Assembly (NCBI GenBank): GCA_963713955.1
Contig: OY970216.1
Location: forward strand, 442,252 to 506,251
Length of the DNA stretch: 64,000 nt
Direction of reading: 5' to 3'
From: an uncultured bacterium
Lineage (GTDB): Bacteria; Patescibacteriota; Minisyncoccia; UBA6257; GWB1-50-10
The position numbers and the translations under genes are program-made. Below the pieces are notes generated by a model, which did no database searches, was not told the origin of the DNA, and worked only from the letters and a program-made list of their open reading frames with translations. Shown piece by piece: positions 7,915 through 60,375 of the stretch. Position 1 is the first letter of the stretch, and every line of letters starts with the position of its first letter.

Positions 7915-8952
7915 TCAGTTATGCTGCAGTATTTGCAATCCGTACATTTGGACCTGGGATACGGTAGCGCTGTTACCGAGATAAACAAGGAAGTAGGGTG
8001 AACCCCACGCGTTGCTGGTTTTGAGATAGATATAAGAAAAATAAGAGGCATTGCCGGTATTAGTTGAAACATTCGTGATATTTGAATCCCTGTCGTGGAT
8101 TTGAAATTGGCCATTGGCTCTATAAAAGAAGTTTATTTTATAAACGTTGTTCAATACAAAGGGTTGGGTCATAGCTCCCGTGTCTGTCCAGCTCCTTTGC
8201 GACTGATTCCCGCCTGTTGCATCGAATTCCAAAACTTGCCCATTAAAGCCATTTCCTGGCGAGGTTAAATTCCAAGTGAGATAACTCGGTGTGGGGTTAT
8301 CCCAGCCGGTAAAAGATTGTGCTCTATAAGTTGAGTTAATCATCAAGTTATTACTCCACAGTAAAGATAAGCTGCTCCCCACTTCATACGTTGAATCATC
8401 AAGCCCTCCATCCGTCGACACGACATCATTGCTTCCCCCATAGCCATATCGTTGGGATTCCATAGAGGCGGTTAATTCGTATTTCCCTCCGCTGGTGGTG
8501 TAGGTATAATAGAGGCCGGTCGATGATGAGTTTATGGGATCTATCGGGAGTTTCGATAGGGGAGATCCTGATGAAATGAGCGTCAGATTCACCGGTATCC
8601 AACCTGTGCCGTCCACCTTGGTGGAAGAAGCAGCTGGAACGCAATGATAGCTCCAGCCTGAAGGGAGAATGGGAAGAGACCATGATCCGCAGGTGGAAGA
8701 TGAATCCGGGAGGGAAACGTAGGTAGTCGATGCGGTTCCCAAGGGTTGGGTGAATTGATCCGCCGTGAAGAGAGATAAGGCGCTATTCAGAGCTGCGAGG
8801 TCTGAGAGGCGGGTGGAATCCCTTCCTTGAGCTATGAGTTGGGTTGGGTTCAGGACGAGAACCACGGCAGTCGCCAGAACGGCGAGAATTGCAATTACAA
8901 CGAGGAGTTCAATAAGTGTAAAACTGGCTCTATCGCGGAGATTCATTATCAC
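7915..8952 (-). CDS. type IV pilin-like protein (class III signal peptide, FTLIELLVVIAILAVLA) with conserved N-terminal module and divergent beta-rich C-terminal domain; paralog 1 of 3
   Basis: prepilin N-methylation motif; ~75% aa identity to N-terminal 170 aa of 34703..35887 and 58197..59432. Confidence 0.85.
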   Translation of the reverse strand: MIMNLRDRASFTLIELLVVIAILAVLATAVVLVLNPTQLIAQGRDSTRLSDLAALNSALSLFTADQFTQPLGTASTTYVSLPDSSSTCGSWSLPILPSGWSYHCVPAASSTKVDGTGWIPVNLTLISSGSPLSKLPIDPINSSSTGLYYTYTTSGGKYELTASMESQRYGYGGSNDVVSTDGGLDDSTYEVGSSLSLLWSNNLMINSTYRAQSFTGWDNPTPSYLTWNLTSPGNGFNGQVLEFDATGGNQSQRSWTDTGAMTQPFVLNNVYKINFFYRANGQFQIHDRDSNITNVSTNTGNASYFSYIYLKTSNAWGSPYFLVYLGNSATVSQVQMYGLQILQHN

Positions 8953-8971
8953 TTATTATAACAAAGTTTTG

Positions 8972-9053
8972 TGCCCGGGGTGGGACTCGAACCCACATGG
9001 GATAGACCCATACGATTTTGAGTCGTACGCGTAAACCATTCCGCCACCCGGGC
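8972..9053 (-). tRNA. tRNA-Leu (anticodon CAA), class II with long variable arm
   Basis: manual fold: acceptor GCCCGGG/CCCGGGC, D-arm GCGGAATGG, anticodon loop CUCAAAA, T-loop TTCGAGT. Confidence 0.8.
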
Positions 9054-15897: not shown

Positions 15898-17571
15898 ATG
15901 GAAACTTGGCAAGAATACGAGCCAGATCTTACTCCCCATCATTGGACTTCTGAAGACAGGTTTTATCTAGAGCCCTTTGCCACGAACCCTGACGGCTTCA
16001 TTTCGGTCTTGAGGAACCTTCCTCCCGAGATCGCTGGTGCTCTCTGCTCAAGAGCCAGCCGCGCTTCGGGTTCTCTCCTCGAGGTATTTCTGAAGGAGTA
16101 CGTCTATCCCATCGTTAAGGGGGAGGATAAAGAACTTGCTGCTGAGCTCGAGAATACGGTGAAATTCCTGCGCGAACACGGCTTCAAGAAAATCTTAAAC
16201 AACCAACGCGCCCAGTCTTTTTACGCCAAATGGCTTTCGCAGTACGGCGATGATTCCATCGCCCAGATGACCGGAACCCACCTGATATTCTGGGGCATAT
16301 CCCAGGTGGCGATGAAATTTATAGAAGACCAGCGTATCGGCCTTGAACCAATCGAGAAATCCACGCGGTACGTCAATTTCGGGAGCAAAACCGACGGTCA
16401 TTATTTGTATTACGTTCCGAGGCCGGATTTGGAAAAAATCGGTCTCCTCGGCGAATACCAAAAAACTCTCGATAATCTCTTTGACACGTACGTCGAGCTT
16501 TTGCCGCCGCTCGTCGGATGGCTCAAAGAGAACTTCGACGAGAAGGATTCCATATTGGAGAAAAAGGCTTTCGATACGCTGCGGGGACTTTTGCCGATGG
16601 CGACCCTCGGCCAAGTCGCGTTCCGGGGGAACGCCCAGGCGTTCGAGTACCTCGTGAATCGGACCGCAAAGCACCACTTGGGCGAACTCCGGTGGATTTC
16701 GCGGGCGGTCAAGAAGGAGTTGGACGAGGAAATTCCATCGCTCCTCCTCAGGGTCAACGATGAGCCGGCGGCCGCCTATCAATCCTACTTGAGCGGAAGA
16801 CACGGTGCTGTGAGAAAATTCCTGAAGGAAAACGGTATCGACGTGCGAAAATCGCTCTCGGGGGAGCCTACCGTGAAGCTCGTTGAGTGGGACGACGCCG
16901 CCGAGTCGAAGATCATGTCGGGGATCGTTTTTGAGCATACGCACGGTGAGTGGAATAATATCCTGGAATCGGTGGAGAAGATGTCGGAAGAGAAAAGGAG
17001 AGAATTGATCGCGACTTACCTCAAAGACAGGAGTCAAAGATGGCATAAGGTAGGCCGGGCTTTCGAGAATTCGTACTTGAGGTTCGAGATAACCATGAAC
17101 ATCGGCGCGTACCGCGATTTGCATCGGCACCGGATGATGACGCAGGAACGGCAGCTCTTCTCGACCCATCATGGGTACGATGTTCCTCAAGAGATCATTG
17201 AATCTGACTTGAAGGACAGATTCACGTCGGCTCTCGATAAAGCGGGCGAGTTTTTCCTTAAGATTGAGTCTTTCGACGCCGGCCTCGCCCAATATGTCGT
17301 CCCTCTAGCTTACCGGATGAGATTTTTCCAATGGCAAAATTTCCGGCAGCTTTTTTGGGAGTCGGAACTTCGAACGATATCCCAGGGACACCCCGACTAC
17401 CGGCACATTGAGCAGGAGAAATACCGCTTGGTGAAAGAGAAATTCCCGCTTATATCAAGCTTCATGCTGGTTGACATGAACGAGTACGACGTCGCGAGGA
17501 GGGGAACAGAGGAAGAGATAAAAAAGAAAGAGGAGTTCTTGGTGGAAAAATTGAAGAAGAAAGTGCTATAG
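15898..17571 (+). CDS. thyX: tandem-domain ThyX-family protein (flavin-dependent thymidylate synthase-like); N-terminal domain degenerate
   Basis: C-terminal half carries RHRMMTQERQ...STHHGY and RFFQWQNFRQLFW motifs resembling the ThyX RHR...S.RY and YTRFFW motifs; N-terminal half retains STRY but lacks RHR. Confidence 0.55.
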   Translation: METWQEYEPDLTPHHWTSEDRFYLEPFATNPDGFISVLRNLPPEIAGALCSRASRASGSLLEVFLKEYVYPIVKGEDKELAAELENTVKFLREHGFKKILNNQRAQSFYAKWLSQYGDDSIAQMTGTHLIFWGISQVAMKFIEDQRIGLEPIEKSTRYVNFGSKTDGHYLYYVPRPDLEKIGLLGEYQKTLDNLFDTYVELLPPLVGWLKENFDEKDSILEKKAFDTLRGLLPMATLGQVAFRGNAQAFEYLVNRTAKHHLGELRWISRAVKKELDEEIPSLLLRVNDEPAAAYQSYLSGRHGAVRKFLKENGIDVRKSLSGEPTVKLVEWDDAAESKIMSGIVFEHTHGEWNNILESVEKMSEEKRRELIATYLKDRSQRWHKVGRAFENSYLRFEITMNIGAYRDLHRHRMMTQERQLFSTHHGYDVPQEIIESDLKDRFTSALDKAGEFFLKIESFDAGLAQYVVPLAYRMRFFQWQNFRQLFWESELRTISQGHPDYRHIEQEKYRLVKEKFPLISSFMLVDMNEYDVARRGTEEEIKKKEEFLVEKLKKKVL

Positions 17572-30584: not shown

Positions 30585-30665
30585 GCTGACTCGGCAAGCC
30601 GAAAAAGTGTGCGCTCCGAGCCGCTAGGCCAAGTCTTACCCACTTTTTCGTCTCACCGAGTCAGC
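30585..30665. repeat. structured palindromic repeat, family F1 copy B, between convergent genes (overlaps dnaX stop)
   Basis: outer stem gctgactcgg/ccgagtcagc, inner stem AGCC-gcta-GGC covaries with copies A and C. Confidence 0.7.
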
Positions 30666-31786
30666 TATTTGCTATTAATTCCCTGGAGCCCTTCCACAAT
30701 TGCTACCTCGAGAGGAATCCTCGGGAACTGGCTGTAGCGCATTTCGCCGTAGGCATTGATGAGCACCTTGATAAGCCCCACGTGAGCTTGCTTGAAGTTT
30801 TTGGACTGGGCGACGAGTTTCTGAAGATGTTCCGGCATCATTTCTTTTTTGAAAACATTTTCCATGGGAGGGCTCGCCCGGAGGACGAGGATTCTCCGGA
30901 GGTATTGGATCACGTCCCGCAAAAACTGGCTCAAGCTGAACCCGCCGTCGGCTATCTCTGAGACGAACTTCAAAGCGCTCGCTTCGTCTCCCTTTACCAA
31001 AAACTCCGTAAACTTATCTATTTTGTCGAAATTAATTTTCCCGACGGCTTTCTCAATTTCCTCAACTTCTATGCTCTTGTCGCCGAGCGAAATCATCTGG
31101 TCGAGAAGCGACTCGGAATCCCGGAAACTGCCTTCCGCGTAGTCAGCGATGAGATCCAGGGCTTCATCGGAGATTTTCACTTTCTCCTCCTTCGTGATCT
31201 TCGTGAGCTTTTTCACGATTTCCTCGCGGGGGACGAGCTTGAAATAAAATTTCTGGGCGCGGGAAGCGATGGTCGCGGGGACTTTCTCTATTTCGGTCGT
31301 CGCGAGAATGATGATGATGTACGCCGGCGGCTCCTCCAGGGTTTTCAAAAGCGCGTTCCAGGCGTCCTTCGTCAACATGTGCGCTTCGTCGATGATGTAA
31401 ACTTTGAATCTCGCGGAAGCCGGAGCGGTCCGTATGGATTCCTTGAGATTCCGTATCTCGTCCACGCCGCGGTTCGACGCGCCGTCGATTTCGAGAACGT
31501 CGAGCGTTTTCCCCTCGTCTATCCCGAGACATGTGGGGCAGGCGTTGCACGGCTCTCCTTTTTTCTTGAATTCCGGGTCCTTCGCCCGCTTCTCGCAGTT
31601 CGCGATTTTCGCGATGAGCCTCGCCGACGTGGTCTTCCCCGTGCCGCGGGGGCCGGAGAAGATATAGGCGTGCGAAAGCCGGTCCTGCCGGGCTTCTTCC
31701 TTCAGGATTTTCACGATAGTCTCCTGGCCCAAGAGATCCTCGAATGTAGCTGGCCGGTATTTTCTATATATGGCGAGGTGGGGCAT
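30665..31786 (-). CDS. dnaX: DNA polymerase III subunit gamma/tau (short form)
   Basis: Walker A GPRGTGKTT, zinc module CNACPTC, clamp-loader motifs. Confidence 0.9.
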   Translation of the reverse strand: MPHLAIYRKYRPATFEDLLGQETIVKILKEEARQDRLSHAYIFSGPRGTGKTTSARLIAKIANCEKRAKDPEFKKKGEPCNACPTCLGIDEGKTLDVLEIDGASNRGVDEIRNLKESIRTAPASARFKVYIIDEAHMLTKDAWNALLKTLEEPPAYIIIILATTEIEKVPATIASRAQKFYFKLVPREEIVKKLTKITKEEKVKISDEALDLIADYAEGSFRDSESLLDQMISLGDKSIEVEEIEKAVGKINFDKIDKFTEFLVKGDEASALKFVSEIADGGFSLSQFLRDVIQYLRRILVLRASPPMENVFKKEMMPEHLQKLVAQSKNFKQAHVGLIKVLINAYGEMRYSQFPRIPLEVAIVEGLQGINSK

Positions 31787-34639: not shown

Positions 34640-34702
34640 TAGGTCGTCTCTTAAAAAATGAGACGACCTTTTCCCTTTTCGGTATGTTATAATAAAGTGG
34701 AA

Positions 34703-35887
34703 ATGTCCATCCATTCTCGTTCTTCCTTCACCCTGATCGAGCTCCTGGTAGTCATCGCCATCCTTGCCGTCCTTGCAACCGCCGTCGTCTTGGTCTTGAA
34801 TCCCGCCCAGCTCTTAGCTCAAGGAAGAGATTCAACCAGGCTCTCTGATCTCTCTGCCTTGAATAGTGCCCTCTCCCTCTTCCAGGCAGATCAATATACC
34901 CAGTCCTTAGGGACTCCAAATACCCTCTACGTATCAGTTCCCGATACCACATCCACCTGTGCCAATCTGGGACTGTCTTCTCCTCCTATAGGATGGGCCT
35001 ATCACTGTGTTCCAAGCTCTTCCTCAACAAGAGTAGACGGAACAGGCTGGATTCCCGTGAATCTTACCCTCCTATCATCAGGATCCCCTTTATCCAAGCT
35101 CCCGATAGACCCTACGAATACCACTAGTTCTGGACTCTACTATACCTACGTATCAGGAGGCTCCTATGCCTTATCCAGTGCCTTGGAATCACAGAAATAC
35201 CTTGTATCCACCGCATCCCAAGACCAAGGCTATGATCCTGGGAGGTATGAGATCGGTTCTGACCTATCCCTTATTGGAAGGAGTGAAGGATTAGTAGGAT
35301 GGTGGCCCCTGGATGGAGACCCGGGGGACAGGAGTGGGAACGGGAACAATGGGACGTGGTATGGATCCATGATCGGAGGTTCTTACTATACGGGAGGGAA
35401 GATCAACCAGGCTGGGAACTTTAATGGGACGGATGATTATGTGAATGTTCCAACGAGCCCGTTATTACATCCCTTGAGCTACGTTACGGTTTCTGCCTGG
35501 GTAAATATGACATCGTCAACTGGCCCATTTGATGGAATCACTACTGATAACGGCAACGACTACTATTTGCAAGCACAATGGCCCAAGTGGCGTTTCTATG
35601 TCATTAACACCTCTAGTGTATATAAAGATGTCTTTTCGATAAATAACATTACGACTGGGCAGTGGTATTTTTTAACCGGTGTCTACGACGGATCGAACGT
35701 TTCCCTATATGTCAATGGCGTTCTACAAGCACAAAATCCTCAAACAGGGAACATACAAAATTCGGCCGGAAACATAACAATATCAACGGGTGGACGTCAT
35801 TTTTATGGAACGATCGACGACGTCCGCATCTACAACCGAGCATTGTCCGCGGCAGAGATTCAGGCGATTTATAATGCACAAAAGTAG
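34703..35887 (+). CDS. type IV pilin-like protein with C-terminal LamG/concanavalin-A-like lectin domain; paralog 2 of 3 (ORF track start 34658; probable ATG 34703)
   Basis: FTLIELLVVIAILAVLA prepilin motif; C-terminus ...DDVRIYNRALSAAEIQAIYNAQK typical of LamG_3 jelly-roll domains. Confidence 0.85.
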   Translation: MSIHSRSSFTLIELLVVIAILAVLATAVVLVLNPAQLLAQGRDSTRLSDLSALNSALSLFQADQYTQSLGTPNTLYVSVPDTTSTCANLGLSSPPIGWAYHCVPSSSSTRVDGTGWIPVNLTLLSSGSPLSKLPIDPTNTTSSGLYYTYVSGGSYALSSALESQKYLVSTASQDQGYDPGRYEIGSDLSLIGRSEGLVGWWPLDGDPGDRSGNGNNGTWYGSMIGGSYYTGGKINQAGNFNGTDDYVNVPTSPLLHPLSYVTVSAWVNMTSSTGPFDGITTDNGNDYYLQAQWPKWRFYVINTSSVYKDVFSINNITTGQWYFLTGVYDGSNVSLYVNGVLQAQNPQTGNIQNSAGNITISTGGRHFYGTIDDVRIYNRALSAAEIQAIYNAQK

Positions 35888-51686: not shown

Positions 51687-52358
51687 TTATCCGACAGTGG
51701 TCTGCTTGTACGTTTTTGCGTTGAAGTCGAATTGATAAAAATTAGGACTATCGGGAGAGCCTACCTCGAGGATAATGCTCGTCGTCCCCGGATCAATCTT
51801 GAAATTCACGGCGCCGTCAACTGAACTTTGGGGCGGCATGGCCTTGAAAGCTCCGACGACGTTGTCGGCAACGGTATTGCTCCCCGTCGGATTGAATATT
51901 TGAATGAGGTTTCCCATGTCGACCGCGCTGTAGCTTGAAGCGGAATCGGTGAAAACCTTGACTGCAACTGCAAGGGTGCCATCCGTCATTTCCGACACTT
52001 TGCTCACGAGTATCGTGAGATCTGTTTGGGGTTCGAGATCAGCGCTGGAACTCGCGTTGAACAAGATGTTCGACGCTATGGAGATCGCCGCACTGGTCGC
52101 TTGGCTTCCCGTTGTGGTGCTTCCCGTTTGCGTTCCGTTTGCCGAGCTTCCGGTCGTAGTCGGCTCGCTCCCGGAATTCCCCGTCGTCGTCACGACGCTC
52201 AAGGGAGAAGACGTGCTCCCGGGAAGAACGTTCTGCGTTCCATTGTTTCCAATAATATTCTCGATCCCGCTTATCTTATTGAAAAGAAAATAAAAACCGA
52301 GGAGCATTACGACAATGACGACCGCGAAGAGCAGGTAAATGTTTCTTATGTTTCTCAT
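51687..52358 (-). CDS. secreted/membrane-anchored Thr/Ser-rich protein of unknown function
   Basis: N-terminal TM/signal anchor, T/S/G-rich low-complexity segment. Confidence 0.5.
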   Translation of the reverse strand: MRNIRNIYLLFAVVIVVMLLGFYFLFNKISGIENIIGNNGTQNVLPGSTSSPLSVVTTTGNSGSEPTTTGSSANGTQTGSTTTGSQATSAAISIASNILFNASSSADLEPQTDLTILVSKVSEMTDGTLAVAVKVFTDSASSYSAVDMGNLIQIFNPTGSNTVADNVVGAFKAMPPQSSVDGAVNFKIDPGTTSIILEVGSPDSPNFYQFDFNAKTYKQTTVG

Positions 52359-53037: not shown

Positions 53038-53129
53038 CCATCAATTAAAGAAACTTGTGATGAGCGAGGATCGGTAAGCCTCGCTCTGGTTGACAATTCC
53101 ACTGTTTCCCCTTACCATATCTACTCGTA

Positions 53130-53540
53130 ATGCCCACGGTAAATCAACTCATCAAAAAAGGCAGATCGACCGTCAAGAAGAAAGCGAAGACTCCGGCATT
53201 GGAGTTTTATTTCAATTACTTGAAAAACAGGCCCGTCGATTCTCCGTCGCCCTTCAAGCGGGGTGTATGTCTCAAAGTTTTCACGACAACGCCGAAAAAA
53301 CCGAACTCGGCCTTGAGGAAAGTCGCGAGAGTGCGACTTACGAACGGCATGGAAGTCACGGCGTATATCCCGGGAGAAGGGCACAATCTTCAGGAACACT
53401 CGGTAGTCGTCGTGAGAGGCGGCAGGGTGAAGGACCTGCCGGGCGTGCGGTATCACGTCGTGAGAGGCGTACTCGACACGCAGGGAGTGGAAGCCAGGAA
53501 GCAACAGCGATCCAAATACGGAGCCAAGAAACCAAAATGA
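53130..53540 (+). CDS. rpsL: 30S ribosomal protein S12 (with ~13-aa insertion after residue ~24)
   Basis: PTVNQL..., [22 protein letters not shown]. Confidence 0.95.
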
Positions 53541-54007
53541 GGAGAAAAGGATTCAAAAAAAGAGAACACGCCGCCGACAGCGCTTATGCGAGAGTTGACA
53601 TGGGCAGATTCATTAACTATTTGATGGAGGGCGGCAAAAAAACGGTAGCCGAGAAGGTTTTTTATGGCGCACTTCGCGAAATAGAAAAAACGACCAAGGA
53701 AGATCCCGTGAAGATTTTTGAGAAAGCCGTTGAGAATGCAACTCCTCTCCTCGAGGTAACCTCAAAAAGGATAGGTGGCGCCAACTACCAGATTCCGCGA
53801 GAGGTGAGGAATGAAAGAAAATTTTTCCTTGCGACGCACTGGATCATAGACGCGGCAAGGAAGAAAAAAGGCAAACCGATGGCTGAGAAGCTGGCGGAAG
53901 AAATCGTGGCCGCCTCCAAGAATGAGGGGGCAGCTATAAAAAAGAAACAAGACACGCACCGGATGGCAGAGGCGAACCGCGCGTTCGCAAGCTACTTGAG
54001 GGGTTAA
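53537..54007 (+). CDS. rpsG: 30S ribosomal protein S7 (start ATG 53537 overlaps rpsL stop)
   Basis: S7 family block ...[16 protein letters not shown]... Confidence 0.9.
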
Positions 54008-57548: not shown

Positions 57549-57881
57549 ATGCCCAAAAAAGAAGCAGACCTCCAAAAAGACAAACTGAGAATAAAGATAA
57601 AAGCTTACGATTCGAAACTGATCGATAATTCGGTACGTCAGATAATCGAGACGATAAAAAGACAGGGCGGTGACGTACGAGGTCCCATACCGCTTCCGAC
57701 TGAATTCAAGAAATATGCAGTGAATCGTTCCACCTTCGTTCACAAGAAATCGGGAGAGCAATTTGAACTCAGAATCCACAAGCGGCTCCTCGACATCGTG
57801 AATCCGGAGCAAAAAATCATCGAGTCACTGACGGATCTCAATCTCCCCTCGGGAGTGGATGTGGAAATAAAGATGGAGTAA
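57549..57881 (+). CDS. rpsJ: 30S ribosomal protein S10
   Basis: S10 family; followed by intrinsic terminator 57902-57928. Confidence 0.9.
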   Translation: MPKKEADLQKDKLRIKIKAYDSKLIDNSVRQIIETIKRQGGDVRGPIPLPTEFKKYAVNRSTFVHKKSGEQFELRIHKRLLDIVNPEQKIIESLTDLNLPSGVDVEIKME

Positions 57882-57901
57882 GCAAGAGCAACCACCAAAA
57901 A

Positions 57902-57928
57902 CACCGCTCATTTGAGCGGTGTTTTTGG
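57902..57928 (+). terminator. rho-independent terminator after rpsJ (caccgctcatttgagcggtg + TTTTT)
   Basis: perfect 8-bp stem plus T-run. Confidence 0.65.
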
Positions 57929-57959
57929 TTTTCTTCAATGTGAATCTGAGAAAGCAGCT

Positions 57960-58166
57960 GGAATCCCTTTTCACTAAAACCCTCAGTTGTTAAAATCCTC
58001 CTCGCTCTTCATCGGAATAAAGTCGCACAATAGCGAACTCAACCTTGGTTTCATTAATGAAACCAGCGGGATTCAAACATTCGCTATTGTGCTCATTCCT
58101 TCCTCATCGCTCGGGGATTTATAAACAACCTCGGGCAAACCGTTCAAAGGGATTCCAGCTGCTTCT
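57960..58166. repeat. ~207-bp MITE-like element with 21-bp terminal inverted repeats (gaaagcagctggaatcccttt / aaagggattccagctgcttct) and nested palindromes (gcacaatagcgaa...GGTTTCATTAATGAAACC...ttcgctattgtgc)
   Basis: read directly; lies between the rpsJ terminator and the pilin-lectin gene promoter. Confidence 0.55.
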
Positions 58167-58196
58167 TTTCTCTTGTCTTGTAGTATAATTAACCTA

Positions 58197-59432
58197 ATGA
58201 ATCTCAGAGGTAGAGAATCCTTCACCCTGATCGAGCTCCTGGTCGTGATTGCGATCCTTGCCGTCCTTGCGGTGGCCGTCGTCTTGGTCTTGAACCCTGC
58301 CCAGCTCCTGGCTCAAGGAAGAGATTCGACTCGTTTGTCTGATCTTTCCGCTCTGAATAGCGCCCTCTCCCTCTTCCAGGCAGATCAATATACCCAGTCC
58401 TTAGGGACTCCGAATACCCTCTACATATCAGTCCCTGACAATGCCTCCTCCTCCTGTGGTTCCTTAGGCCTCCCAACTCCTCCCCCAGGATGGGCCTATC
58501 ACTGTGTTCCCCAAGCTTCTTCCACGAAGGTAGATGGTTCCGGCTGGATTCCCGTGAATCTGACCCAAATCTCATCAGGAAGTCCCTTATCCAAGCTTCC
58601 GATAGACCCTGCCAATTCTTCCTCCTCAGGACTCTACTATACCTATACGCTCTCCAGCAACGGGAAGTATGAATTGACCTCAGAATTGGAGTCCCAGAAA
58701 TACGTTCCTACCATGGCCCAGGATGGAGGTTCCTATGACGGTCTCTACCAGATTGGTTCCCAGGTGGATATCACTCCTCCCTTCCGGAGCTCTGGACTCA
58801 TGGGGTATTGGCCGTTCGACGAGGGGAGTGGGACCACGGCATACAATTCCTCGGGGAATAATAACAATGGGAGCTGGAGCGGGGCGACGCCGTATTATAC
58901 AGCCAGCGCGAAGGTGGGAGCGTACGCTGGGAATTTCAATGGGAGCAATGATATCGTTACCTTACCGACAGGCAGCACTCAATTAGAGACACCCAGCATA
59001 ACTGTTTCTGCTTGGATTAATTTTACGGCCGCTACGAGTAGTAACTATGATATCTTTCAGAAGAAGCGTCCCTATGGCAATTACCGCGGCTACGAACTTT
59101 ATATAAACCTCAGCAATCAAGCACAATTTGATATCGGAAATGGCTCAGCGTATATTACGGGTCCGTCATCCTCAGTTTCTAAGAATACATGGACTTTTAT
59201 TGTAGGAAGCTATGATGGCAATAACATCAACATATATGTCAATGGAACCCTAAAATCTACTGTAGCGAATAATACCGGTATTAGTTATTCTGGGGGTAGT
59301 AGTCCGGGGACATATATAGGCACTGACAGTGGTAATGCTAATTACTTTACCGGCTTCATGGACGACGTCCGCATCTACAACAGGGCATTATCCGCCGCGG
59401 AGGTCCAGGCGATCTATAATGCACAGAAATAG
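58197..59432 (+). CDS. type IV pilin-like protein with C-terminal LamG-like lectin domain; paralog 3 of 3, located inside the S10 operon (ORF track TTG 58173; probable ATG 58197)
   Basis: ~88% nt identity to paralog 2 over the first ~500 bp and the last ~70 bp; divergent middle. Confidence 0.85.
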   Translation: MNLRGRESFTLIELLVVIAILAVLAVAVVLVLNPAQLLAQGRDSTRLSDLSALNSALSLFQADQYTQSLGTPNTLYISVPDNASSSCGSLGLPTPPPGWAYHCVPQASSTKVDGSGWIPVNLTQISSGSPLSKLPIDPANSSSSGLYYTYTLSSNGKYELTSELESQKYVPTMAQDGGSYDGLYQIGSQVDITPPFRSSGLMGYWPFDEGSGTTAYNSSGNNNNGSWSGATPYYTASAKVGAYAGNFNGSNDIVTLPTGSTQLETPSITVSAWINFTAATSSNYDIFQKKRPYGNYRGYELYINLSNQAQFDIGNGSAYITGPSSSVSKNTWTFIVGSYDGNNINIYVNGTLKSTVANNTGISYSGGSSPGTYIGTDSGNANYFTGFMDDVRIYNRALSAAEVQAIYNAQK

Positions 59433-59744
59433 AAGGTAAAGCACCAAATCCCAAGCACCAAATCCCAAATAATACCCCAATGTTCGAATTTCAAATTTAA
59501 GTATTTATTTGTTATTTGGAATTTGGATCTTGGAATTTCACTGCTTCGGTTAACCGAAGCGGTCTCATTAATGAAACCACCTCTACAAACATTAGGCTCG
59601 AGCTTAATCTTTGTAAAACGAGAGCTTACAATATTCCTACTTCCAAAGAGAAGCAGCCCAAGGTTTCCTTGAACGTTTTTCCGGAAGGCGTTTGAGTCCC
59701 AGTCGTTTATTTCTTTTAGGAGGTGGGATGATTCCAAAGAGCGA

Positions 59745-59812
59745 GGCAGGTACTCCTTCCGAAGGCTAAGACTTGGGCGTCGCCCCGGAGACTGCCTGAG
59801 GAAGGAGTACCT
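59745..59812. repeat. repeat family F2 copy 3 (reverse orientation) upstream of rplC promoter
   Basis: near-identical to 50671-50740. Confidence 0.65.
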
Positions 59813-59850
59813 GACGAGTAAGAAGAAATCATCTCGCCGACGCCCCTTTG

Positions 59851-59880
59851 TTGACAAAAAAAGCCCTTTTAGCTAATATA
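59851..59880 (+). promoter_or_regulatory. sigma-70-like promoter for rplC and downstream genes (-35 TTGACA 59851, -10 TAATAT 59875)
   Basis: consensus hexamers with 18-nt spacing. Confidence 0.45.
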
Positions 59881-59949
59881 AAGGCCAAAGAGACAGGTAG
59901 CCAGAAAATAAACCGGGCTAGGGTCTCGGTTCTTTTTTTGGATAAAAAT

Positions 59950-60375
59950 ATGGTGAAAATCACCGGCATAAAACTCAAAATGTCGCAGGTATGGAAGGGA
60001 GACGAAGTGATCGCTGTCACGCCGGTTAAAGTTTCCGAGGAAAGCGCCCTCGGAGAGGTGAAAGAAGGAGAAAAAGTCAAAGTAAGCGGTGCAAGCAAGG
60101 GAAGAGGATTTCAAGGGGTGGTGAAAAGACACGGATTTCACGGCGGGCCCAAGAGCCATGGACAAAAAGACCGCTTGCGGGCGCCGGGCTCGATAGGTCC
60201 CACCGCGCCCCAGAGAACCATCAAGGGAAGAAGAATGGCGGGCCACATGGGAACAAGGAAAGTAACGGTCAAGAATTTGGAAATCATCGGAATCAAAAGC
60301 GACGAAAAGACGCTTCTTGTGAAGGGCGCCGTGCCGGGTCCGGTAGGCGGGAAAATTGAGATAACCAAACAATAA
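59950..60375 (+). CDS. rplC: 50S ribosomal protein L3 (short; ORF track start 59848; probable ATG 59950)
   Basis: GRGFQGVVKRHGFHGGPKSHG... Confidence 0.85.
   Translation: MVKITGIKLKMSQVWKGDEVIAVTPVKVSEESALGEVKEGEKVKVSGASKGRGFQGVVKRHGFHGGPKSHGQKDRLRAPGSIGPTAPQRTIKGRRMAGHMGTRKVTVKNLEIIGIKSDEKTLLVKGAVPGPVGGKIEITKQ

Follow-up and report, generated by a model that had tools for sequence, protein, structure and literature searches.

Host recognition is poorly understood in Patescibacteria, which probably live in attachment to the cells of other organisms. A 64,000-nucleotide (nt) stretch of contig OY970216.1 (positions 442,252 to 506,251, assembly GCA_963713955.1; hereafter the window) from an uncultured bacterium of this group contains three open reading frames (ORFs) that were described in an initial annotation, made from the letters alone, as a mosaic family of pilin-like genes with a shared N-terminal module and swapped lectin domains. 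This raises the question of what the encoded proteins are, and by which process one end of such genes stays alike while the other diverges. All three ORFs were found where they had been placed, at 7915-8952 on the minus strand and, on the plus strand, at 34703-35887 (longest version from 34658) and 58197-59432 (longest version from 58173). Together they make up about 5% of the window and are referred to as P1, P2 and P3, respectively. Our analyses indicate that P1-P3 are probably part of a large family of modular type IV pilins, whose genes are dispersed over a Patescibacteria genome (Parcubacteria/Paceibacteria-like) of about 0.8 Mb and which combine a recombination-homogenised pilin module with unique binding-type domains.

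Domain architecture of the three pilin genes

The features of the three genes, positions being those of the window, are as follows (LamG, laminin G-like; CBM, carbohydrate-binding module).

7915-8946, minus strand: P1, modular type IV pilin gene of 343 amino acids, most likely start; 100% identical to database protein P0121
8923-8946, minus strand: leader peptide of P1
8389-8922, minus strand: pilin module of P1
7915-8388, minus strand: C-terminal domain of P1, rare and without a Pfam model, predicted CBM4/22/29-like beta-jelly roll
34703-35887, plus strand: P2, modular type IV pilin gene of 394 amino acids (leader, pilin module and LamG module), most likely start
34703-34726, plus strand: class III leader peptide of P2, MSIHSRSS, with cleavage predicted from the motif after Ser-1 and before Phe+1
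34727-35287, plus strand: pilin module of P2, with alpha-1 helix (model residues 11-63), Glu+5 and a beta-sheet globular part, including the conserved Cys86 and Cys102
35288-35809, plus strand: LamG (concanavalin A-like) core of P2
35810-35887, plus strand: conserved C-terminal tail of P2, TIDDVRIYNRALSAAEIQAIYNAQK, and stop codon; last beta-strand and terminal helix of the LamG fold
58197-59432, plus strand: P3, modular type IV pilin gene of 411 amino acids, identical to database protein P0010
58197-58220, plus strand: leader peptide of P3
58221-58802, plus strand: pilin module of P3
58803-59354, plus strand: LamG core of P3
59355-59432, plus strand: tail of P3

Each protein begins with a hydrophilic leader of eight residues that ends in Ser (MSIHSRSS, MNLRDRAS and MNLRGRES), followed in all three genes by FTLIELLVVIAILAVLA. 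In line with the class III prepilin signal that had been proposed, all three passed the Pfam N_methyl model (PF07963; 29.1, 30.9 and 26.8 bits against a cut-off of 21.2, with an E-value of 6.6e-07 for P2) and TIGR02532 (20.5-21.7 against a cut-off of 16.3). The residue at -1 is Ser instead of the canonical Gly in all three genes, as had been pointed out, but this is no oddity of the locus: among 118 homologues with the motif, Ser is the majority state (68, compared with 26 Gly and 24 Ala). Because prepilin peptidases tolerate small residues at -1, the lack of Gly weakens the pilin assignment only slightly.

The three proteins resemble each other far beyond chance (E-values of 1e-113 and 1e-52), and in a protein alignment the module they share reaches to about mature residue 185-195, so that its length is about 190 rather than the about 170 amino acids first given. 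In an AlphaFold2 model of P2 (predicted local distance difference test score, pLDDT, 92.8; predicted template-modelling score, pTM, 0.88), an alpha-1 helix of 53 residues is followed by a beta domain and then by a jelly roll. Helices at residues 11-32 and 34-63 are followed by beta-strands with pLDDT above 90, corresponding to a predicted lollipop pilin fold, and in a search of the PDB the sequence matched PilA, GspG and geopilin in their alpha-1 helices. Structure prediction, the check proposed at the outset, thus supports both a pilin part and a LamG jelly roll in P2.

The C-terminal halves of P2 and P3 matched Laminin_G_3 (PF13385) over the full model (1-151) with 104.2 and 110.3 bits (cut-off 27.6; E-values of 9.1e-30 and 1e-31). 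In the P2 model, about 15 strands in residues 197-377 form a two-sheet beta-sandwich jelly roll, for which the top Foldseek hits were domain 4 of AbnA (5hon, a carbohydrate complex; E about 1e-12, probability 1.00, target-normalised TM-score 0.77) and the lectin-like domains of clostridial neurotoxin receptor-binding fragments (E about 1e-12). The LamG jelly roll ascribed to P2 and P3 is therefore borne out by Pfam for both and by model and Foldseek for P2. TafC, a subunit of haloarchaeal Tat fimbriae (NF052521), was considered and rejected, as it scored 29 and 51.5 bits against a cut-off of 410 and matched the LamG part only. In P1, no Pfam match was found after the leader. Its C-terminal domain is unrelated in sequence, as stated before, yet it is predicted to adopt a CBM4/22-like jelly roll, in a model of only moderate confidence (mean pLDDT 70). 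An exhaustive HMMER search with this domain recovered only 16 representatives, a word-index search with it gave no match, and BLASTP revealed no similarity to the CBM_4_9 pilin P0145.

At the nucleotide level, P2 and P3 display the proposed succession of a conserved 5' block, a variable core and a conserved 3' block. BLASTN aligned the 5' block over 430 nt at 80.9% identity, lower than the about 88% first reported, with sliding windows reaching up to 97%. The cores are about 45% identical and effectively unalignable, and the last 75 nt are 85.3% identical, with 22 of the final 24 residues shared, in agreement with the near-identical ends described earlier. P1 is 71-72% identical to P2 or P3 in the 5' block, with saturated synonymous sites.

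A large family with unique binding-type domains

The three genes had been taken for the whole family, which turned out to be far larger. The P2 protein matches a public database entry at 100%, located on an 804,691-bp contig with at least 11 further pilin-LamG paralogues, that is, at least 12 LamG pilins and at least 13 members when P1 is counted. More than 3,100 homologues were found at E≤1e-5, and those that are named come from Patescibacteria, Parcubacteria, Wolfebacteria or Jorgensenbacteria. Related metagenome-assembled genomes (MAGs) carry several copies as well (10 loci in DAIEHA01). A search with the N-terminal module revealed pilins of about 180-200 amino acids that consist of this module alone on other contigs, and fusions to other CBM-type domains in other genomes, such as CBM_4_9 in P0145.

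While the pilin module is shared, the binding-type domains are unique to each gene. The LamG core of P2 is at most 41% identical to that of any paralogue and at most 38% to that of any of 108 homologues from other contigs. All LamG cores of the source contig are 17-41% identical to one another, and none has a relative above 51% among these 108 homologues.

Some members of the family are irregular. On the source contig, P0002 carries a second, truncated leader with an FTLIELLVV fragment ahead of the real leader, P0040 has lost the conserved tail, apparently by a frameshift, and P0235 is a 5' fragment of 106 amino acids. A different assembly contains, on another contig, P0150, which is nearly identical to P2 but frameshifted. 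Such irregularities may represent scars of recombination, pseudogenes or errors of assembly.

Recombination of the pilin module

Block-wise comparison of the paralogues showed that their nearest neighbours switch along the pilin module. Within the source genome this evidence is at the amino-acid level, except for the three window genes. P0003 is 93% identical to P3 in block b and then 100% to P2 in block c, and P0009 is P2-like for about 100 residues before it diverges. Of the four pilin blocks, two show 100% identity between P2 and P0007 (97% and 94% in the others), whereas their LamG cores are only 17% identical. Across contigs, the P2 pilin module is 96-100% identical to that of P0004, and P0004 and P0013 join a P2-type or P0008-type module to unrelated cores. 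The pairwise homoplasy index (PHI), which can be inflated by convergent substitution when calculated from amino acids, was 0.451 for 70 informative amino-acid sites, compared with 0.603 ± 0.017 after permutation, a value reached by 0 of 2000 permutations, and 51% of the informative site pairs were incompatible with a single tree.

Synonymous sites of the window genes gave a similar picture. Where P2 and P3 share the amino acid, they use the same codon at 66% of sites in the pilin module and at 39% in the core (Fisher's exact test, p=2e-4), the latter being close to the saturation baseline of 38% in comparisons with P1. The Nei-Gojobori proportion of synonymous differences (pS) was 0.48 in the module vs 0.82 in the core. 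Inside the 5' block lies a candidate trace of an exchange.

34868-34917, plus strand: perfect 50-nt identity tract of P2 and P3 within the 5' block (81% identical), candidate relic of gene conversion

A replicate at the nucleotide level was provided by paralogues of the related MAG DAIEHA01. Its loci L045 and L046 match at 97-100% over a tract of about 660 nt, which extends from position -36 relative to the mature N-terminus to about +630 and after which identity drops sharply to about 35%. Their upstream flanks, LamG cores and downstream flanks are unrelated. L045 and its orthologue L031 from another MAG are uniformly about 80% identical over the whole gene. Judged from these alignments, L045/L046 represents a clean ectopic conversion tract that spans leader, pilin module and first LamG motifs. 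Between L035 and L033, from two related MAGs, identity falls from about 88% in the module to about 38% in the core, which has therefore been replaced. L029/L028 and L045/L031 are plain orthologues. Gene conversion or cassette exchange had been suggested for this family. Of the two, recombination of the 5' module between paralogues is well supported by these comparisons, whereas a programmed cassette system is not.

The conserved 3' tail

The 3' block had also been read as a signature of recombination, an interpretation that is weakly supported. A tail with the consensus IDDVRIYNRALSAAEIxAIYNA(T/Q)K is present in nearly all of 120 homologues from many contigs and MAGs, and the conservation profile over these homologues is 0.73 for alpha-1, 0.63 for the globular part, 0.39 for the core and 0.77 for the tail. 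Parts of it also align with the non-pilin LamG structures 5hon and 4qvs in the PDB search. Because it is kept in nearly all homologues and partly in non-pilin LamG proteins, the tail reflects mainly purifying selection. It is mainly a structural hallmark of this LamG family and not a recombination anchor, and the L045/L046 tract lacks an anchor in the tail.

Compared with tails from other MAGs that share at least 17 of 24 amino acids, the P2 tail is 64-81% identical in nucleotides, with a codon identity of 42%. Between P2 and P3 the values are 85% and 68% (n=22 codons), a marginal excess (p=0.023). Thus, a weak case can be made that recombination contributes to the likeness of these two tails.

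Alternative explanations

In a programmed system in the manner of Neisseria pilE/pilS, one expressed locus would be rewritten often by cassette exchange, using the 5' and 3' blocks as anchors. The arrangement of conserved 5' block, variable core and conserved 3' block is what such exchange would leave, as are the excess of synonymous identity between P2 and P3 in both flanks (66% and 68% vs 39% in the core), the very recent tracts in the related genome and the possible scars in P0002 (duplicated leader fragment), P0040 (truncated tail) and P0235 (106-amino-acid fragment). We nevertheless consider it improbable. All three window copies are full-length, with leader, start codon and their own TATAAT box, and neither tblastn with 13 paralogues nor blastn with the three genes detected promoterless or truncated copies in the 64-kb window. 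The 3' block is kept across other contigs and MAGs, so that the 85% of P2 and P3 lies barely above the 64-81% seen elsewhere (p about 0.02), and the L045/L046 tract is confined to the 5' part, with tails only 53-60% identical, indicating that two anchors are not needed. Moreover, a synonymous divergence (dS) of about 0.8 between the 5' blocks of P2 and P3 speaks against frequent exchange. Targeting by a diversity-generating retroelement was rejected as well: parts of the LamG cores have no second copy in the window, and the variation spans the whole domain, including insertions and deletions. No reverse transcriptase was seen among the window ORFs scanned, which were not all of its ORFs.

At the other extreme, plain duplication and divergence, with purifying selection on module and tail and fast or diversifying evolution of the core, would produce the same conservation profile across the 120 homologues without any recombination, and the saturation of synonymous sites throughout P1 in comparison with P2 and P3 fits it. 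This explanation is already contradicted, and we regard it as highly improbable: it leaves unexplained why neighbours switch along the module (PHI, 0 of 2000 permutations), why synonymous sites differ between blocks of one gene pair, why L045 and L046 step from 97-100% to about 35% within unrelated flanks while L031 stays at a uniform 80% or so, and why P2 and P0007 reach 100% in two pilin blocks and 17% in the core. A different objection concerns function. The proteins could be Com-like or type II secretion system-like pseudopilins, or surface-anchored proteins for which the class III signal serves export alone, and their LamG domain would bind protein or be enzymatic. Among NCBIfam models, GspG, GspH and GspJ indeed match the N-terminus best, although each scores far below its cut-off. 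The 20 larger window ORFs scanned included neither a prepilin peptidase nor a gene for pilus assembly, and the concanavalin A-like superfamily also includes protein-binding LamG domains and catalytic members such as glucanases. This, too, seems quite unlikely, given a modelled full pilin of alpha-1 and beta domain with Glu+5, the existence of proteins on other contigs that consist of the pilin module only, as expected of filament subunits, and grafted modules that are all of carbohydrate-binding type (LamG, CBM_4_9 in P0145 and the CBM-like fold predicted for P1). In addition, type IV pili are well conserved in Patescibacteria and used in host binding (PMC11623550).

Several of these points weigh against a family of recombining pilus adhesins, the reading we prefer. 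Besides the missing pilus machinery among the ORFs scanned, the breadth of the concanavalin A-like superfamily, the moderate confidence of the P1 model, the amino-acid level of most mosaic evidence in the source genome and the possible inflation of PHI, assembly into a pilus is expected from family membership only. Carbohydrate binding by the LamG and CBM-like domains is likewise proposed from their fold, the Pfam family, the 5hon complex and the precedent of PilC. The dS of the 5' blocks further means that the exchange between P2 and P3 is ancient. Nothing shows that conversion is frequent, and the exchanges are seen on evolutionary time scales.

Proposed mechanism and its meaning

Under the recombining-adhesin explanation, each protein has three parts. 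The class III leader of eight residues, with Ser at its end, is followed by the pilin module (about 190 amino acids), in which an alpha-1 helix with Phe+1 and Glu+5 precedes a disulfide-bonded beta domain, and by a C-terminal beta-sandwich of carbohydrate-binding type, LamG/concanavalin A-like in P2 and P3 and predicted to be CBM4/22-like in P1. A prepilin peptidase would remove the leader, and the constant pilin module would admit every paralogue to one type IV pilus. The grafted domain could then be displayed on the filament, its tip or the surface as a lectin-type adhesin for glycans of host cells or surfaces, a location at the pilus tip being an assumption. The evolutionary part of this explanation is borne out by the comparisons above: ectopic gene conversion among the dispersed copies repeatedly homogenises leader and pilin module, in tracts that reach from the start codon into the first conserved motifs of LamG, while the LamG cores stay unique and are replaced now and then. 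As a result, a single constant scaffold carries a repertoire of at least 13 binding modules.

The architecture of a pilin joined to PF13385 is already catalogued, and what is added here is the evolutionary pattern at the level of the family. A limited full-text search of the literature returned no description of multi-copy mosaic LamG-pilin families in Patescibacteria. At least 13 lectin-type pilins in a 0.8-Mb genome point to glycan recognition by pili as a major investment and make these genes concrete candidate determinants of host specificity. It is conceivable, although we hold it to be rather doubtful, that ultra-small bacteria of the Paceibacteria type run a combinatorial adhesin library, in which ongoing conversion shuffles the constant scaffold onto a very large pan-genomic pool of LamG and CBM domains. 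If so, strains could re-tune which host glycans their pili recognise, providing a determinant of host range comparable to the swapping of phage receptor-binding proteins, and exchange within the library might be active within populations.

Gene starts, promoters and genomic context

P1 most likely starts at ATG 8946, because the identical database protein P0121 has 343 amino acids, a TATAAT box lies 8 nt upstream and the leader length matches. Similarly, P2 most likely starts at 34703, although the database entry begins with an ATG further upstream, at 34658, because a perfect TATAAT lies 9 nt upstream and the resulting leader has the same length as the others. The boxes of the three genes came from a direct search for TATAAT; a scan for two-hexamer consensus promoters called no promoter upstream of the pilin genes.

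8955-8960, minus strand: putative -10 box of P1 (TGTTATAAT), 8 nt before ATG 8946, directly after tRNA-Leu (8971-9053)
34688-34693, plus strand: putative -10 box of P2 (TGTTATAAT, extended -10 type), 9 nt before the ATG, read from the sequence
58184-58189, plus strand: putative -10 box of P3 (TATAAT), 7 nt before the ATG

These hexamers probably act as -10 elements, in which case each pilin gene would form its own transcription unit with a TATAAT 7-9 nt ahead of its ATG. For P2, a box 9 nt before the ATG would imply an mRNA with little or no leader. The window contains 33 perfect TATAAT hexamers, ten of which precede the start of an ORF (80 amino acids or longer) by 5-9 nt. The ORFs concerned include all three pilin genes and dnaX, and examples lie upstream of 30665-31786 and 51687-52358 (both minus strand) and of 835-1536. 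Leaderless or near-leaderless transcription may thus be common in the source genome.

The window also carries housekeeping genes, namely dnaK, dnaJ, groEL, ATP synthase, dnaG, rpoD, an EF-G/EF-Tu/S10 cluster and parA/parB, and four tRNAs were its only Rfam matches at gathering level. P1 starts 25 nt after tRNA-Leu(caa) (8971-9053, minus strand), and L046 of DAIEHA01 directly follows the 3' end of a putative tRNA gene, recognised by its sequence. Placement of pilin copies next to tRNA genes may therefore recur. P2 is flanked by genes for a membrane protein and an ABC transporter. P3 lies between rpsJ (S10) and rplC (L3; window 57549-60375), within an otherwise contiguous cluster of EF-G, EF-Tu, S10, L3, L4, L23 and L2. 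None of the neighbours in the window (S10, L3, ABC transporter, membrane protein, a tRNA-binding protein and ParA) adjoins any of 78 related loci within 2.5-kb flanks; therefore, pilin positions are not conserved at this distance.

The surroundings of P3 contain several repeats. A strong terminator with a 16-bp stem follows rpsJ (57894-57929), and an inverted repeat of about 213 nt (57952-58164; predicted RNA folding energy -88.3 kcal/mol, z = -10.35) ends just upstream of the P3 -10 box and has no Rfam match. The palindrome at its centre, GGTTTCATTAATGAAACC, is found a second time at 59561-59578, which is 130 nt downstream of P3 (2 matches vs 0.05 expected). The inverted repeat could be an element resembling a miniature inverted-repeat transposable element (MITE) or an insertion scar that brackets P3. 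Right after the P3 stop codon, AAGCACCAAATCCC is perfectly duplicated in tandem (2 x 14 nt, 59439-59466), followed by an AT-rich stretch and short palindromes.

Two ORFs elsewhere in the window are unusually long for their domains. In the ThyX-domain ORF (15898-17571, 557 amino acids), the best Thy1 stretch covers residues 351-517, a second matched stretch not having been located, and in the S7 ORF (53090-54007, 305 amino acids) the S7 domain is found only at residues 150-297. Either these proteins have long N-terminal extensions or the ORF calls are over-extended.

Comparison with known systems

Neisseria pilE/pilS shares with the family described here multiple copies of type IV pilin genes, non-reciprocal recombination and conserved segments around variable ones. 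In Neisseria, however, silent cassettes that lack the 5' end and a promoter serve to rewrite a single expressed locus, so that variable sequence is transferred, whereas the three copies in the window are complete with promoter, and the best-documented tracts move the constant 5' module, as in concerted evolution. Membership in this class was therefore rejected: silent copies were not found in the window, and all three genes carry leader, ATG and TATAAT.

With respect to domain architecture, IPR012902 combined with PF13385 ranks among the 15 commonest modular pilin architectures, with representatives that include several proteins from the candidate phyla radiation (CPR; Raynaud et al. 2021, PMC8179133), and this architecture is identical to that of P2 and P3. 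The relevant part of the catalogue is a census of architectures, which does not deal with multi-copy families per genome, mosaicism or gene conversion (PMC8179133). Within the same superphylum, lectin-like minor pilins and host cell-wall glycans have been implicated in host binding by Saccharibacteria (PMC11623550). PilX1 and PilX2 of Nanosynbacter lyticus TM7x are likewise large pilins with a C-terminal accessory domain that structure searches found to be lectin- or CBM-like, but they are encoded by single genes in pilus loci, and PilX2 has a beta-propeller (PMC11623550). The genes described here, in contrast, belong to a large family of paralogues with LamG or CBM-like modules and are interspersed with housekeeping genes.

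For the proposed function, an experimentally characterised analogue is the minor type IV pilin PilC of Streptococcus sanguinis, whose concanavalin A-like lectin module binds sialylated glycans and glycosaminoglycans and for which a tip location was modelled (Shahin et al. 2023, PMC9934059). At E≤1, the PDB search did not return PilC as a sequence match. PilC resembles P2 and P3 in combining a class III signal and a pilin module with a C-terminal beta-sandwich of the concanavalin A-like/LamG superfamily, and the same role in glycan adhesion would be expected. It differs in its unusually short pilin moiety, in an additional Ig-like module and in being a single-copy protein that acts together with PilA at the tip, whereas a full pilin module of 190 amino acids is found here, in a recombining family of at least 13 copies.

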